IMG/VR virus record: IMGVR_UViG_2698536511_000012
Source: a virus
Lineage: Duplodnaviria; Heunggongvirae; Uroviricota; Caudoviricetes
Length of the DNA stretch: 7,080 nt
Strand: one strand, 5' to 3'
The position numbers and the translations under genes were made by a program. Below the pieces are notes generated by a model that saw nothing but the letters and a program-made list of their open reading frames with translations, searched no databases and was not told the origin of the DNA. Positions within the stretch are counted from its first letter, which is position 1. Every line of letters begins with the position of its first letter. Shown piece by piece: positions 1 to 5,361 of this stretch.

Positions 1-189
1 GAACAGGAGGGACAGCTGATAGAAACAGAAGCCACTGGAGCACCTCAAAAACACCATCATACACTAAATCAGTAAGTTGGCAGCATCACCGGGGGCGCAG
101 ACCCTGATTATGTTATCTGGGCGAAAGAAGTTCAGGGTATTAACCGTGCATGGACTTTCAGACACTGGAAAGGCACTGGAACGGTTGGC

Positions 190-588
190 GTGATGGTGGC
201 GACAAACGATCCGGAACGCCCGGCCCCGGATGAAAGCGTGATTAACGCAGTCAGGGACCACATCCTTCCTCTGGCACCTGTTGCCGGAAGCGGATTGTAT
301 GTATTCGGTGCCACAGAAAAAGTCATCCCGATGACGATTGCATTATCGAAAGACACACCGCAGATCAGGACTGCAATAAAAGCAGAGCTGAATGCACTGA
401 TGTTACGGGATGGTGTGCCAGAGGGGCGTATGTATCTGTCCAGAATCAGTGAGGCCATCAGTTTGTCTGCTGGTGAAGTGGCCCACCGGTTAATCGTCCC
501 TTCATCGGATATTGACCTGGGGGAGACCGAGCTTCCGGTGCTCGGCGAGATCACCTGGCAGGCTTATGACCCGGCAAGGAGTAAATAA
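190..588 (+). CDS. Baseplate assembly protein J-like (gp47/P2 gpJ family), C-terminal portion only; probably a 5'-truncated remnant
   Basis: The translation resembles the C-terminal third of P2 gpJ/Mu gp47-type baseplate proteins. Similarity in the same frame extends upstream to about position 76 with no start codon, and an in-frame TAA sits at 73-75. Sequence upstream of 73 in all three frames does not resemble the J family. The stop overlaps the next gene's ATG (TAATG at 586-590), which is typical operon coupling. Confidence 0.6.
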   Translation: MMVATNDPERPAPDESVINAVRDHILPLAPVAGSGLYVFGATEKVIPMTIALSKDTPQIRTAIKAELNALMLRDGVPEGRMYLSRISEAISLSAGEVAHRLIVPSSDIDLGETELPVLGEITWQAYDPARSK

Positions 589-1178
589 TGGATTCGTTAC
601 AGGATGATTATACAAAGCTGCTGTACGGACTGATGCCGCCGGGGCCTGCATGGTCAGATACCGACGGTGTACTTGACGGTCTGGCACCATCGCTTGTGCG
701 TGTTCACCAGCGGGCTGATGAACTGGTGATTGAAATCGATCCCGGTCAGTCCACAGAGCTGATTGAACGTTATGAAGAATTGTATGGTTTACCTGATTCC
801 TGTTCCCCTGTCGGAACCCAGACATTACGCCAGCGTCAGCAACGTCTTGAAGCAAAAGCCAATGTGGCTGGTGGCATAAATGAGCAGTTCTTCCTGGATC
901 AGCTTGAGGCGCTGGGATATACCGGCGTAACGATCGAACAGTTCCAGCACTTGGATGCAAGCCCCGATCCGGAATGGGGAGATCGCTGGCGTTATTTCTG
1001 GCGTGTGACGTTGCCGATGGATGCCGGTGCTCAGTGGCAGACATGCACGGACGCCTGCAACACACCGATCCGGACGTGGGGGGATACGGTTGCGGAGTGC
1101 GTGATTAATAAATTATGTCCGTCACACACCGTCGTTTTATTTTCCTATCCAGATGAGGATGAAGATGCACAGGATTGA
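588..1178 (+). CDS. Phage tail protein I-like (P2 gpI / YmfQ-like, DUF2313-type) baseplate protein
   Basis: 196-aa ORF with an AGGAG Shine-Dalgarno at 576-580 upstream of ATG 588. It sits between the J-like and tail-fiber genes as in the P2/Mu baseplate order J-I-fiber. The protein resembles YmfQ/gpI-family proteins as I recall them. Confidence 0.75.
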   Translation: MDSLQDDYTKLLYGLMPPGPAWSDTDGVLDGLAPSLVRVHQRADELVIEIDPGQSTELIERYEELYGLPDSCSPVGTQTLRQRQQRLEAKANVAGGINEQFFLDQLEALGYTGVTIEQFQHLDASPDPEWGDRWRYFWRVTLPMDAGAQWQTCTDACNTPIRTWGDTVAECVINKLCPSHTVVLFSYPDEDEDAQD

Positions 1179-2205
1179 TACGCTGACTGCGGTAAAAGAT
1201 AAGTTTGGTCCGGGTAAGAACGGATTTACTGACGGAAATCTTCGCACAGGACGTCTTGCTACCTGGCTGAACAGTGCCATGTGGAATGCCATTCAGGAGG
1301 AAATCTGTGGTGTCATTGAGAAGGCCGGGATAGAACTGAATAAAGAAGAACACGACCAGCTATATAAGGCTATATTATTGCTGGTGGGCGGTGCAATTAA
1401 CGAAGAGGCATTGCTGATAAAAAATAACCTTTCGGATGTGGAAGACAGGGATGAGGCTGTTGAAAACCTCGGATTAAAACCCACGGTGGATAAGGCAAAA
1501 AATGCCGTTCAGCGTGATGGCGACACCATGACCGGAGAGCTGAAAATCCGTGGTGTTAATGCGCTGAGGATTTTCAACGAAGCTTTTGGCCTGATTTTTC
1601 GTCGTTCGGAAGAGTGCCTGCACCTTATTCCCACCAGTGAAGGTCAGGGGGAAAATGGCGATATTGGTCCCCTGCGCCCGTTCACCATTAATCTGCGGAC
1701 GGGTGAAATATCCATGTCGCATAAAGTGTCTGTTGGCGGTGGTTCGCAGGTCAATGGTGCGCTGGGTATCGGCGTTCAGAACGCCCTGGGGGGGAATTCA
1801 ATTGTTCTTGGTGATAATGACACCGGATTCAAACAGAATGGTGATGGCCTGCTGGATGTTTATGCCAATAGCGTGCATGTGTTGCGTTTTCAGAGTGGCA
1901 GTATCCAGAGTAATAAAGCTGTAAACGTTACAGGACGGGTAACACCGTCAGACTACGGAAACTTTGATGCCCGTTACCAGCAGCGAAATGGTGGCGTGCA
2001 GGATGTGCGGTATGGTTATGAAATGTATTACCCCCCCGGCAGTAACACCGTTTCGTGGACATTTCGCTCACCTTCGGGACACGGGCTGTCAGGGATATCG
2101 ATATCGGATACCGGCCGTAACTCAGCGGATAACGTCAACGGCGTGTATTACCGACCGCTGCAAAAACTGATTAATGGCACCTGGTATAACGTAGCGAGTA
2201 TTTAA
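1165..2205 (+). CDS. Phage tail fiber protein (Mu S / P2 gpH-type C-terminal receptor-binding domain); alternative starts at ATG 1153 or 1159
   Basis: The C-terminal ~160 aa (IVLGDNDTGFKQNGDG...DVYAN...NFDARY...INGTWYNVASI) closely match the conserved C-terminus of P2 gpH and related Mu/P1 S fibers as I recall it. The N-terminal region has the W-N-x-IQEE...AGI pattern of fiber baseplate-attachment domains. A GAGGA motif lies 5 nt before ATG 1165. Confidence 0.8.
   Translation: MHRIDTLTAVKDKFGPGKNGFTDGNLRTGRLATWLNSAMWNAIQEEICGVIEKAGIELNKEEHDQLYKAILLLVGGAINEEALLIKNNLSDVEDRDEAVENLGLKPTVDKAKNAVQRDGDTMTGELKIRGVNALRIFNEAFGLIFRRSEECLHLIPTSEGQGENGDIGPLRPFTINLRTGEISMSHKVSVGGGSQVNGALGIGVQNALGGNSIVLGDNDTGFKQNGDGLLDVYANSVHVLRFQSGSIQSNKAVNVTGRVTPSDYGNFDARYQQRNGGVQDVRYGYEMYYPPGSNTVSWTFRSPSGHGLSGISISDTGRNSADNVNGVYYRPLQKLINGTWYNVASI
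1457..1482 (+). other. Relic DNA-invertase (hix/gix/cix-type) crossover-like motif at the constant/variable junction of the tail fiber gene
   Basis: CTGTTGAAAACC-TC-GGATTAAAACCC: the left half is close to the Hin hixL half-site TTCTTGAAAACC, and the AAAACCTCGG core is identical to the reverse complement of the Mu gixL core (site sequences recalled from memory). The right half is degenerate. It encodes the ENLGLK junction motif at 1462-1479. Confidence 0.35.
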
Positions 2206-2207
2206 CA

Positions 2208-2753
2208 ATGTTGCATTTAAAAAATATTACGGCAGGTAATCCGAAAACCGCGGAATAATATCAGCTGACAAAACAGTATGATGTCACCTGGCTTTTTTCG
2301 GAAGACGGCAAAAACTGGTATGAAGAACAGAAGAACTTTGCCAGTGACACCATAAAAATGGTTTACACCGGAGACGGGCGCGTGGTGTGGGTCGGTAAGG
2401 ATGTGACAGGCATTGAACCCCGTAACGCCAGTGTTATTGAAGTTCCTGATATTACCGCCAACCGCCGCATTACCGCGCCGGGTTACTGGTTTTACCGCAA
2501 TGATGAATTTGTCTTTGACTACAGACTCAAAGCGGAAGATGAGCGTGATGCCCTTCTGGCTCAGGTCAGTGCCCGGACAGGGGAATGGGAAGAAGACCTG
2601 CTGCTGGGGCTAATCAGCGACGAAGACCGGGAAAAACTGAAAGCGTACCGTATTTACGCGAAATCGCTGCAGGCGATGGATTTCAGCACCATCACTGATA
2701 AATCCTCATATAACGCCATTGAATGGTCCGTCTCTCCGGAAGGTTCTTCCTGA
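2208..2753 (+). pseudogene. Tail fiber assembly protein (P2 gpG / Tfa family) interrupted by an in-frame TAA at 2256-2258; longest intact ORF is 2358-2753
   Basis: ATG 2208 opens with MLHLKNITAGNPKTAE, matching the conserved Tfa/gpG N-terminus (MxHLKNI..GNPKTKEQYQLTK), then hits TAA where the family has a glutamine codon (CAA). The same frame continues as YQLTKQYDVTWLFSEDGKNWYEE... into the 2358-2753 ORF, which carries the SVIEVPDITANRR motif of gpG. Confidence 0.7.
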
Positions 2754-2776: not shown

Positions 2777-4045
2777 ATGTCTGTAGTGATATCAGGTGCG
2801 CTGACTGATGGCGCAGGCATCCCCATGTCCGGATGCCAGATTATTCTGAAATCCCGTGTAAACACCTCAGAAGTGGTGATGCGTACCAGGGCTGATGTAG
2901 TGACCGGAAATAACGGTGAATATTCGTTTGAGGCACAGGTCGGAAAATATTGCGTGTATCTGAAACGGGACTGGCGCGACGAGTACTGTGTTGGCGACAT
3001 TGCTGTATACGACGACTCAAAGCCCGGCACGCTGAATGACTTTCTGATTGCTCCTGATGAGGGCGACCTGAAACCGGATGTCGTCAAACGCTTTGAGGAA
3101 ATGGTGGCGCAGGCGCAGCAGAGCGCCGGGGCCGCAGCCGGAAACGCACAGCAGACGGCGCAGGATGTGGCGGCAGCCGCAGGTTATGCCCGCGCAGCAG
3201 AGCAGGCCAAAAATGACATTGATGCTGCGCTGACCGGCACTCTGAAAACGGCTAACCATCTGTCTGAAATCGCAGCAGCAGGCGAAAAGGCACAACAGAA
3301 GTCCCGGGATAATCTGGGGCTGAAAAGTGCGGCCACGATGGAAGCACAGAGCGACATTTACGACCGGACAAAAGGCCGTCTGGCGATACCCGGCGCATTC
3401 GGCTTTGGGTGTGCTTTTCTGCCTGAAGATGTTATCCGTTTTGACACTAAGAGTGATTTCCTGGCCTGGGTAAGGAATGCGCTGCCAGGTGAATATTCCG
3501 TTGCTGGCCCCTACGACATCATCATACCCGACACACGGTTTGAAGGGGTGCTCAGCATCCGGTGGACTGATGCACGCCCTGAGACAACAGAACCGAGGTA
3601 CAGAGCCAAATCCCTTACTTTTTACGGCATTAACGGCCCCATTTATCACACCCGCTACTGCTACTGGCCCATATCCAGACTGACTGGCTGGGTGAAAATA
3701 AATATAACCACAGAAGATATTATTTACAGAATCGTGGCGAGCTCTGTCTGCAACAGATGGGGAGACCCTGACATTGGCGGGCTGATTATTGCTGCGTACC
3801 AGGGAGAAGCTGACGGTGATAAAGTCATCAGACTTGTCAGGGGGCAGTCATACAGAGGCTCACGACTGGGACCGGTGGGGATTTCAGTGCCCAGTACTCC
3901 CACCGGAACGTATATAGCATCCCCACAATTTTTCATTACGGGATGTTCAGAGCATTCATTACCGGGGTCATATAGCGCCCTGTCCGGGGTGCCGGATGCT
4001 CATGTCTCTGGCGCAATGCCCGGGCTTTTTATTCGCACATCGTGA
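2777..4045 (+). CDS. Tail fiber protein with a lambda Stf-like N-terminal domain, Ala/Gln-rich shaft, and a ~230-aa C-terminal domain of unrecognised family
   Basis: The N-terminus (MSVVISGALTDGAGIPMSGCQIILK...YDDSKPGTLNDFL...RFEEMV) parallels the lambda side tail fiber N-terminal domain (MAVKISGVLKDGTGKPVQNCTIQLK...YEDSQPGTLNDFL...). It is followed by an A/Q-rich segment and a DNLGLK junction at 3308-3325. The C-terminal half matches nothing I recognise. Confidence 0.75.
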   Translation: MSVVISGALTDGAGIPMSGCQIILKSRVNTSEVVMRTRADVVTGNNGEYSFEAQVGKYCVYLKRDWRDEYCVGDIAVYDDSKPGTLNDFLIAPDEGDLKPDVVKRFEEMVAQAQQSAGAAAGNAQQTAQDVAAAAGYARAAEQAKNDIDAALTGTLKTANHLSEIAAAGEKAQQKSRDNLGLKSAATMEAQSDIYDRTKGRLAIPGAFGFGCAFLPEDVIRFDTKSDFLAWVRNALPGEYSVAGPYDIIIPDTRFEGVLSIRWTDARPETTEPRYRAKSLTFYGINGPIYHTRYCYWPISRLTGWVKINITTEDIIYRIVASSVCNRWGDPDIGGLIIAAYQGEADGDKVIRLVRGQSYRGSRLGPVGISVPSTPTGTYIASPQFFITGCSEHSLPGSYSALSGVPDAHVSGAMPGLFIRTS

Positions 4046-4055
4046 GGAATGCACC

Positions 4056-4757
4056 GTGGAAATTAAAAAAATCATTAATCCCCGTTATACCGAAAGTGGC
4101 GCAGTAGACTGTGACGTTTTTTTTGACGACAGGGACCAGGCAGTCCCCTACACAGCCACCGCTGATGATGTCGCACCGACGGGTCAGCGAATCTGGCAGG
4201 AACTGCAAAGTGGCAAATGGGGTGAGATAGCCCCATTCACTGTGACACCAGAAATGCTGGAAGCGGCCAGAGAGGCCAGACGTCAGGAAATTGAAGCATG
4301 GCGCACAGAACAGGAGGCGAAGCCGTTCACGTTTGAATGGAANNNNNNNNNNNNNNNNNNNNNNNNNNNNNNNNNNNNNNNNNNNNNNNNNNNNNNNNNN
4401 NNNNNNNNNNNNNNNNNNNNNNNNNNNNNNNNNNNNNNNNNNNNNNNNNNNNNNNNNNNNNNNNNNNNNNNNNNNNNNNNNNNNNNNNNNNNNNNNNNNN
4501 NNNNNNACTCACTGGGCCGCCTGTCCCCGGTAGTCATGCTGGCAAAATCTGTCACAGCACAAACGCATATGGCGTGGGGTGATGCCGATAATCAGCAGGT
4601 GAAACTGTCGATGCCGGAACTGGAAGAACTGGCGGCAGCAATGGTGCAGGCGCAGGTCGATCGCAACGATGAGATTTATCGCCGTCAGCGTGAAATGAAA
4701 GAGGAGCTGAGTGGTCTGGAGGATTTGGGAACAATTAGAGCGTTTGATGTTACGTAA
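4056..4757 (+). CDS. Putative tail fiber assembly/chaperone-like protein (possibly DUF4376-type); internal region 4343-4506 is N-masked
   Basis: The ORF follows the fiber gene immediately. The likely start is GTG 4056, preceded by GAGG at 4044-4047, rather than the out-of-context ATG 3996 that overlaps the fiber gene by 50 nt. The reading frame is continuous across the N-run in absolute coordinates. The family assignment is from memory and uncertain. Confidence 0.55.
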   Translation: MEIKKIINPRYTESGAVDCDVFFDDRDQAVPYTATADDVAPTGQRIWQELQSGKWGEIAPFTVTPEMLEAAREARRQEIEAWRTEQEAKPFTFEWXXXXXXXXXXXXXXXXXXXXXXXXXXXXXXXXXXXXXXXXXXXXXXXXXXXXXXXXSLGRLSPVVMLAKSVTAQTHMAWGDADNQQVKLSMPELEELAAAMVQAQVDRNDEIYRRQREMKEELSGLEDLGTIRAFDVT

Positions 4758-4803: not shown

Positions 4804-4837
4804 AAAAGCCTCTGACTTCATAATCAGAGGCTTTTTT
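4804..4837 (+). terminator. Rho-independent terminator (possibly bidirectional) closing the tail-fiber operon
   Basis: GC-rich stem GCCTCTGA (4808-4815) pairs with TCAGAGGC (4824-4831) around an 8-nt loop, followed by TTTTTT (4832-4837). An A-run precedes the stem, so the reverse strand also shows a hairpin plus a short T-run. Confidence 0.55.
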
Positions 4838-4955: not shown

Positions 4956-5361
4956 TGGTGGAGCTGGCGGGAGTTGAACCCGCGTCCGAAATTCCTACAT
5001 CCTCGGTNNNNNNNNNNNNNNNNNNNNNNNNNNNNNNNNNNNNNNNNNNNNNNNNNNNNNNNNNNNNNNNNNNNNNNNNNNNNNNNNNNNNNNNNNNNNN
5101 NNNNNNNNNNNNNNNNNNNNNNNNNNNNNNNNNNNNNNNNNNNNNNNNNNNNNNNNNNNNNNNNNNNNNNNNNNNNNNNNNNNNNNNNNNNNNNNNNNNN
5201 NNNNNNNNNNNNNNNNNNGAGAGGGCTCTAAGCAGGTTATTAAGCTGCTAAAGCGTAGTTTTCGTCGTTTGCGACTATTTTTTGCGGCTTTTTACGAGGC
5301 CAACCGCCCCTCGGCATGCACCTTGGGTTTCGCAAATCCCGTCGAATCCAGAATCAGCCCC
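4956..5361 (-). ncRNA. ssrA: tmRNA (SsrA / 10Sa RNA); middle portion N-masked (5008-5218)
   Basis: The reverse complement of 5219-5361 reads GGGGCTGATTCTGGATTCGACGGG...GCTTAGAGCCCTCTC, identical to the first 143 nt of E. coli tmRNA. The reverse complement of 4956-5007 reads ACCGAGGATGTAGGAATTTCGGACGCGGGTTCAACTCCCGCCAGCTCCACCA, the tmRNA 3' end with CCA. It lies downstream of smpB on the same strand, as in E. coli. Confidence 0.9.

Follow-up and report, generated by a model that had tools for sequence, protein, structure and literature searches.

The closest described counterpart of the locus studied here is the normal right genome end of the inducible Stx2e phage phiP27, where the four genes L54-L57 stand just before attR and L56 (putative tail fiber, 490 aa) is followed by L57 (hypothetical protein, 188 aa). 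In lambda (Ur-lambda), the accessory fiber Stf joins an N-terminal collar domain to a coiled-coil shaft and a T4 gp37-like tip, and its Caudo_TAP chaperone gene lies directly downstream. Lambda side fibers speed adsorption, and the Stf-type N-terminal domain clamps the non-contractile tail tube at the gpV-gpM junction (PMC12617516). Twelve of these domains form the collar at this tube-tip junction. A fiber gene followed by a DUF4376 gene is likewise found in Alteromonas phage V22 (gp26/gp27) and at the H-fiber of Campylobacter CJIE1. V22 gp27 is essential for active fibers (PMC7289586, PMC10579305), and the CJIE1 H-fiber depends on its downstream DUF4376 gene (PMC7882524). Phage Mu places two fiber specificities, S/U and the invertible S'/U' of the G segment, side by side at its right end, with the Mu-type baseplate genes upstream.

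Herein, we analyzed a 7,080-nt stretch of viral DNA (IMG/VR record IMGVR_UViG_2698536511_000012, referred to as the window). Positions 2777-4757 very probably represent the second tail-fiber cassette of a temperate myovirus that is of the phiP27 type and has a Mu-like tail. The features of the window are collected in Table 1. Its backbone is of the Mu/phiP27 type (Mu gp45, gp46, Baseplate_J and Mu gp48/YmfQ), and the gene order J, gp48, fiber, Tfa, Stf-N fiber, DUF4376 and att is identical in phiP27 (L52-L57, attR), in E. coli C311, whose prophage occupies the same ssrA site, in FDAARGOS_944 and in Rac-SA53. The open reading frames and this synteny bear out the original prediction of two tandem fiber-plus-chaperone cassettes. 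The same prediction had likened the position of the second cassette to the Z/fun accessory locus of P2. This analogy fails because the backbone is of the Mu/phiP27 type. The P2 slot lies between G and FI and holds a non-structural gene, whereas the cassette of the window precedes a terminator and ssrA, not sheath and tube genes. Only 200 nt separate the partner gene from ssrA, and none of 200 shuffled sequences matched the stability of the hairpin in this interval (z -6.55).

Table 1. Features of the window, with coordinates, strand and supporting evidence
Feature	Coordinates	Strand	Evidence or remark
IS1 element end	1..90		terminal repeat stops at 90; truncates baseplate J gene
Baseplate J / Mu gp47-type gene, C-terminal fragment	190..588	+	PF04865 E 3e-8; PHROG 1608 E 1e-40
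YmfQ / Mu gp48-type baseplate wedge gene	588..1178	+	PF10076 E 2e-25; PHROG 203 E 5e-73
First tail fiber, 346 aa	1165..2205	+	PHROG 6859 E 6e-209
First fiber assembly gene (Caudo_TAP/Tfa)	2208..2753	+	PF02413 E 7e-21 on 2358-2753 product
Second tail fiber, 422 aa, phiP27 L56 type	2777..4045	+	PHROG 2636 E 7.8e-205; phiP27 synteny
Residues 1-131, Stf-type N-terminal "collar" (virion attachment) domain	2777..3169	+	PF08400
Residues 132-190, Ala/Gln-rich coiled-coil-like shaft	3170..3346	+	read from sequence
Residues 191-321, module D1, alpha/beta knob	3347..3739	+	D1-only matches cover profile positions 1-146
Residues 322-422, module D2, terminal beta-rich tip	3740..4042	+	D2-only matches, profile positions 145-248
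DUF4376 partner, phiP27 L57 type	4056..4757	+	PF14301 and PHROG 1141 on unmasked sequence
N run, 164 positions	4343..4506		stands for 26 real bases only
Terminator-like hairpin and U tract, closes tail operon	4804..4837	+	-20.6 kcal/mol
ssrA (tmRNA), attachment site at right prophage end	4956..5361	-	coordinates mapped from relative; annotated in C311

The N runs of the window are not true to length, which calls for caution from its readers. Recovery of the masked bases at 4343-4506 had been suggested with the original prediction, and the genome L008, which matches the window at 100% wherever letters are unmasked, carries 26 nt at this place (TGGTCGTATCTGGAATGCTGGCCCCG). The true partner is therefore 187 aa long, not 233 aa. 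The 164-N run makes the partner look as if it had gained 46 aa, an insertion that was rejected on the same ground. Likewise, ssrA appears 406 nt long because the N run at 5008-5218 replaces 168 nt; the tmRNA in L008 measures 363 nt (ARAGORN).

The second fiber shares with phiP27 L56 both the PF08400 N-terminus (90% identity over 120 aa) and the family of the tip, and L57 is the same DUF4376 partner with 74% identity. The tips are just 35-38% identical, the shaft of the window's fiber is about 50 aa shorter, phiP27 uses a different integration site, and the window's copy sits in a broken prophage. Residues 1-131 matched phage_tail_N at E 2.4e-63 (profile positions 1-131 of 134), and a PDB sequence search matched them to the solved collar domain of lambda Stf (9e7m) at E 4.6e-17, in agreement with the Stf-type N-terminus first proposed. 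This domain would dock the fiber on the virion, and the Ala/Gln-rich coiled coil would form a short shaft of what is probably a trimeric accessory (side) fiber. Compared with lambda, the window pairs its collar domain with a D1+D2 tip and a DUF4376 protein (PF14301, not PF02413), and its Mu-like backbone implies a contractile tail where that of lambda is non-contractile.

The place of attachment could differ from that in lambda. A sheathed tail offers no docking site of the gpV-gpM type. The second fiber could instead be a whisker-like neck or collar fiber whose Ig-like N-terminal domain binds the head-tail connector, as in XM1 gp40. The N-terminal 198 aa matched this "collar spike protein" of the Vibrio myovirus XM1 (7kjk) at E 1e-6 in the PDB sequence search, the N-terminal domain of gp40 binds the neck (PMC10457771), and in a contractile tail the sheath would hide the tube-tip junction used by lambda. 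However, the match to lambda Stf is far stronger, and the gene is grouped with baseplate and fiber genes, not with neck genes. We consider a neck fiber possible though unlikely; it is a variant of the side-fiber reading that differs from it in the mounting place only.

The Ala/Gln-rich shaft and the DNLGLK motif at 3308-3325 were found where the original prediction placed them, the motif lying near the end of the shaft. The claim that both fibers share this junction stood for NLGLK, which recurs in the first fiber at 1465-1479, and not for the full motif, which is ENLGLK there. Some 5-mer was common to 11% of shuffled fiber pairs, and the DNA around the two junctions (38/105 identities) has no similarity, so that a shared 5-mer would be weak evidence alone. 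It becomes meaningful because its residues are conserved, nearly invariantly, across the tip family. A second mosaic joint was located where PF08400 ends, near nt 396-400 of the second fiber gene.

The residues past the DNLGLK junction had been described as about 240 aa that could not be assigned to any family. Searches of Pfam, NCBIfam, PADLOC and PDB sequences with the C-terminal 247 aa indeed gave no match. The tip by itself nevertheless matched PHROG 2636, named "tail fiber protein", with an E-value of 1.9e-97 over positions 330-567 of the 568 in the profile, and is a member of a small, uncharacterized but clearly fiber-type family. In a set of 1.84 billion representative proteins, this family amounts to about 120 clusters, and its named matches are all from Escherichia, Shigella or Salmonella. 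Two modules were delimited within it. D1 stands alone in some relatives and is repeated in-line 2-3 times in others (P0108 and P0109), while D2-only matches are invariably C-terminal; D2 ends in GLFIRTS, and the GLFxR ending is conserved in the family. The same C-terminal family occurs on PF08400-type, PF12571-type and long P2-H-like N-terminal parts, in-line inside long fiber shafts, and in fiber genes of lytic phages. Its presence on three kinds of N-terminus supports the modular swapping of receptor-binding ends that had been predicted.

An initial AF2 run with 12 sequences gave a pLDDT of 69, and Foldseek against the PDB with this low-confidence model returned nothing significant (best E 0.04). 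It was replaced by a run with 43 sequences, which reached a pLDDT of 90.6 (about 90-97 in D1); this model is a monomer of what is probably an intertwined trimer. Its best structural neighbors were exclusively phage fibers and receptor-binding proteins, namely the knobs of the R2 pyocin fiber, T4 gp34 and the phage K gp144 / phi812 receptor-binding proteins, which are small alpha/beta or beta domains strung along trimeric fibers. The predicted fold of the tip is thus shown to be fiber-like at the level of the model. Together, the D1 knob and the terminal D2 tip would form the host-recognition end. Between loci, the tips fall to 30-50% identity while their partners keep 70-86%, a pattern expected for a diversifying receptor-binding end.

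The two modules might not share this role. D1 alone may bind the receptor, with D2 as a conserved trimerization and chaperone-docking module comparable to an intramolecular chaperone foot. D2 carries the most strongly conserved motifs (GGLxLAAY, GSRL, LPGxYxALSG and GLFxR) and is paired with a conserved partner, the subtypes of D1 and D2 recombine independently, and D2 is also found without D1. However, D2 is as divergent between loci (30-49% identity) as D1, the Pfam search found no autoproteolytic motif of the Peptidase_S74 type, and D2 is the most distal part, the usual receptor contact of fibers. This division of labor appears doubtful to us, and we favor a recognition end built from both modules.

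The chaperone-like partner noted earlier was borne out as a DUF4376 protein. The unmasked 187-aa sequence matched PF14301 with 61.6 bits against a cutoff of 25 (E 1.1e-16) and PHROG 1141 at E 1.2e-87; a PDB sequence search gave no match. Its gene starts at GTG 4056, with GAGGAA 7 nt upstream. An alternative start at ATG 3996, which would overlap the 3' end of the fiber gene in another frame, was rejected because homologues begin at the GTG 4056 position. In every intact locus examined, the DUF4376 gene starts at -23 to +1 nt of the fiber stop. Among the 77 IMG/VR loci, 44 have an upstream ORF with a fiber-motif end at this distance from the partner start, and the rest are frameshifted Shigella-type copies. 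The IMG/VR search for diverse partner homologues brought back no relative below 73% identity. The arrangement was also found in L012-L014 and in the lytic phage Av-05 (Vequintavirinae), which keeps the pairing at 32% (fiber) and 38% (partner) identity to the window's proteins. Tight co-variation of partner and tip was not seen among close relatives and appears only at the larger distance of Av-05; the partner may recognize only the conserved D2 core.

By analogy with V22 and CJIE1, whose pairs are related to this one at the level of Pfam domains only and whose fiber tips are unrelated, the partner is presumed to be an intermolecular chaperone of the second fiber. Like the tested DUF4376 proteins, it would trimerize at the distal tip and nucleate folding from the C-terminus, and it may remain on the fiber as a cap.

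The genes of the two cassettes are separated by gaps of 23 nt (upstream of the second fiber) and 10 nt (upstream of the partner), with no terminator between them. Since one late operon contains both cassettes, the virion would carry two fiber sets, a Mu S-type baseplate fiber and a Stf-type side fiber. The Mu G segment and the e14 P segment switch their fibers with inverted repeats and the Gin/Pin invertase. In the window, no inverted repeats flank the fiber genes and no invertase ORF was found. Because the second fiber brings a complete N-terminal anchor of its own, the two fibers can be made at once, not alternately as in Mu.

The prophage at ssrA of Shigella sonnei is a remnant. The IS1 end matches IS1B in thousands of plasmids at 100%, and all phage relatives align from position 91 onward only. 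The first fiber begins at ATG 1165, the start annotated in L001 (the listed ORF begins at 1153), and comparison with L001, which has an intact 181-aa first Tfa, revealed that a TAA at 2256-2258 (codon 17) inactivates the window's copy. With baseplate J cut by IS1 and a nonsense codon in the first chaperone, no particles are possible. The exact 422-aa fiber protein, annotated as prophage tail fiber, is intact on 674 Shigella sonnei contigs despite the broken neighboring genes, as might be expected if Shigella had co-opted the cassette, for example as an adhesin or a tailocin part. We regard co-option as very unlikely. In a clone as recent as S. sonnei, this identity is no sign of selection; among the full-length fiber copies of IMG/VR prophage contigs, 8/19 carry frameshifts, the IS1 cut leaves no tail structure to be built, and a secretion signal and a separate promoter are absent.

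The reservation that the tip might have a non-fiber function found no support: accessory cargo (defense, exclusion or an enzyme) carried on a fiber N-terminus in a moron slot like P2 Z/fun is extremely improbable, for although the tip lacks sequence matches in Pfam, NCBIfam and the PDB and the cassette lies at the extreme prophage end, a frequent moron site (in FDAARGOS_944 an ipaH effector gene comes next), no defense or enzyme family was found by PADLOC or NCBIfam, the top structural neighbors are all fiber-related, the domain is embedded between shaft segments and present in lytic-phage fibers, a fiber-chaperone-type gene always adjoins it downstream, and the backbone is not P2-like.

Our findings identify the cassette as a standard host-recognition module that is already annotated as tail fiber in hundreds of Shigella genomes. 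Situated in a dead prophage, it has little importance alone. It does define a compact two-module tip family, with a D1 knob and a D2 terminal domain, that has neither a Pfam entry nor a solved structure and could serve to retarget tailocins or phages to E. coli and Shigella. We further propose, tentatively and as an idea that is rather less than probable, that phiP27-type contractile phages may mount the second fiber set away from the baseplate, possibly at the neck collar since a Stf-type collar domain cannot reach the sheathed tube, and that the D1/D2 family is a plug-in receptor-binding kit for neck, side and P2-H-type fibers with one generic DUF4376 cap. Prophages of the phiP27 type, the ipaH islands of Shigella among them, as a rule carry two fiber cassettes, and two fiber sets would permit a broader host range or a two-step adsorption.

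Each sequence feature listed for fiber 2, the product of the second tail fiber gene in the window, was found at its expected position. Its Stf-type N-terminus matched PF08400 over residues 1–131 (E 2.4e-63) and is followed by an Ala/Gln-rich shaft and a DNLGLK junction at 3308–3325. The junction motif is common to both fibers, reading ENLGLK in fiber 1, the first tail fiber, with NLGLK at 1465–1479. This common 5-mer is poor evidence alone; some 5-mer was shared in 570 of 5000 shuffled fiber pairs, and no DNA relationship was seen in the sequence flanking the two motifs (38/105 identities). The junction residues are nearly invariant throughout the tip family. The last 247 aa of fiber 2 gave no match in Pfam, NCBIfam, PADLOC, or PDB sequences, and matched PHROG 2636, "tail fiber protein", with E 1.9e-97. 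The fiber 2 cassette consists of an Stf-type anchor and shaft, an exchangeable two-module tip, and, within one operon with them, a gene of chaperone type. Elements of this kind are ordinary and have been annotated before, and the original prediction was right in its main reading of a second fiber-plus-chaperone cassette. The + strand of the window carries the last genes of a phage tail operon, beyond whose terminator lie ssrA, smpB, ratA, and ratB.

Features of the tail operon end in the window
Feature	Coordinates	Strand	Details
Baseplate J fragment	190-588	+	
Mu gp48/YmfQ-type wedge gene	588-1178	+	
Fiber 1	1165-2205	+	
Caudo_TAP assembly gene	2208-2753	+	
Fiber 2	2777-4045	+	
DUF4376 gene	4056-4757	+	
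Strong terminator hairpin	4804-4837		3' of DUF4376 gene; -20.6 kcal/mol, z -6.55

A word-indexed search returned 107 tip relatives, and every one with a named source was from Escherichia, Shigella, or Salmonella. When 1.84 billion representative proteins were searched exhaustively with a tip profile, only 120 clusters emerged. The tip comprises two modules, D1 (residues ~191–321) and D2 (~322–422). D1 sometimes occurs alone in mid-fiber or is repeated two- or threefold in line, alternating with P2-H-like shaft segments (relatives P0108, P0109, P0114, and P0118); in the long fibers P0108 and P0109, with two or three copies, such a segment precedes each D1. The jumbo phage Goslar gave a D1-only match, a "tail fiber repeat protein". 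D2 is always terminal, ending in GLF[IVM]R, and was found without D1 in P0189 and P0199. Three kinds of N-terminal part carry the tip family, namely PF08400, PF12571 (P2 gpH-type), and long P2-H-like shafts. Relatives share with the window either nt 1–368 of the fiber 2 gene or only the region from ~nt 396–400 onward, as in many Shigella-type copies. Sequence comparison points to a second recombination joint at the PF08400 end. The varied N-terminal parts and this joint confirm the proposed modular swapping of fiber C-termini.

AlphaFold2 with 43 diverse sequences gave a model (mean pLDDT 90.6) with an alpha/beta knob, a helical linker, and a terminal domain rich in beta structure. Its structural neighbors were phi812, AS12, R2 pyocin, T4 gp34, Belisarius, phage K gp144, phi11, Pa193, Mu S, and NF5, unchanged from an earlier, weaker model. 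Foldseek of the first low-confidence model against the PDB returned no significant match. Based on these neighbors and this null result, the predicted fold is fiber-like in kind, without a close solved relative. Among the structural matches, no enzyme or defense fold competes with the fiber-type neighbors, leaving the reservation that the tip might be non-fiber cargo unsupported.

The masked part of the DUF4376 partner gene was read from L008 (CP022457.1), one of the S. sonnei genomes that encode the exact fiber 2 protein; apart from the N runs, it matches the window with 100% identity. The N run at 4343–4506 has 164 positions in the window and 26 nt in L008, and that at 5008–5218 has 211 positions and 168 nt; L008 also carries a tmRNA of normal 363 nt (ARAGORN). 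The window N runs are therefore not length-true, and ORF and tmRNA lengths taken from the window are inflated. From GTG 4056, the partner has 187 aa, not 233 aa. An upstream start at ATG 3996 was disfavored, as the N-terminus from GTG 4056 aligns with homologues including phiP27 L57. The unmasked partner matched PF14301 (61.6 bits) and PHROG 1141 (E 1.2e-87), with ~1800 relatives at E ≤ 0.001. At intact loci, it starts −23 to +1 nt from the stop of a fiber with the D2-motif end. The lytic Vequintavirinae phage Av-05 also has the pair (fiber 32% identical, partner 38%). In temperate relatives, the partner retains 70–86% identity while D1 and D2 fall to 30–53%, which suggests that the partner may recognize the conserved D2 core.

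A distant DUF4376 protein, Alteromonas V22 gp27, is required for active fibers (PMC7289586), as is the distant downstream DUF4376 gene of Campylobacter CJIE1 (PMC7882524), and the term "transient caps" has been applied to V22 gp27 (PMC10579305). Fiber 2 would be trimeric, with a DUF4376 trimer folding the tip from its C-terminus, and the virion would bear two fiber sets. Two precedents bear on where fiber 2 may dock, namely the tube-tip junction, clamped in lambda by twelve N-domains (PMC12617516), and the neck, bound in the myovirus XM1 by a related domain (PMC10457771); the fiber 2 N-domain matched XM1 7kjk with E 1e-6.

The cassette matches in order the right end of the inducible Stx2e phage phiP27, which runs fiber L54, assembly protein L55, fiber L56, L57, and L58 with attR. 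L56 is a 490-aa fiber with the same N-domain as fiber 2, and L57 has 188 aa. E. coli C311 has the four genes in the same order before the prophage end, also at the ssrA site, and Rac-SA53 has them ahead of its prophage end. The four genes also precede the prophage end in E. coli FDAARGOS_944 (L001, 10874–12515), where the cassette is nearly identical and the next gene is an ipaH effector pseudogene with a frameshift; phiP27-type remnants like this one are the elements called "ipaH islands" in Shigella and enteroinvasive E. coli. The genes upstream at sister loci belong to the Mu gp44, gp45, and gp46 types. Judged from these genes and the phiP27 order, the backbone is Mu/phiP27-like, not P2-like. 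The double fiber cassette is the normal end of phiP27-type phages, and thus the suggested analogy to the P2 Z/fun slot fails. Two further loci, L012 and L013 (4440–9785), carry one block with identical gene coordinates and the same second-fiber protein, P0046, containing Tfa, the second fiber, DUF4376, a 237-aa gene, HP1_ORF34, and a 565-aa gene. The baseplate backbones ahead of it differ, one being DUF2590/Baseplate_J-type and the other Mu gp45-48-type. The gene coordinates and P0046 identity suggest transfer of the whole fiber block between phage types.

An IS1 end at window 1–90, 100% identical to IS1B, truncates the baseplate J gene. In sister genomes, the IS1 transposase lies immediately upstream. 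Codon 17 of the first assembly gene is TAA (2256–2258), and CAA in an intact relative; this first chaperone is a predicted pseudogene, or else must use an internal restart. The exact fiber 2 protein occurs on 674 contigs, annotated [quoted passage not shown]. Because of the IS1 cut, the nonsense codon, these contigs, and the L008 identity, the window shows the right end of a decaying prophage inserted at ssrA, its attachment site in S. sonnei. Certain S. sonnei genomes (L005, L009; 8152–10693) have an integrase and other phage genes after the cassette in place of ssrA/smpB, a sign of either rearrangement or a second copy. Many Shigella-type copies of the fiber 2 gene are frameshifted; in IMG/VR prophage contigs (loci L016–L070), this applies to 8 of 19 full-length copies. 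In the S. sonnei genome, the fiber 2 cassette is most likely a relic.
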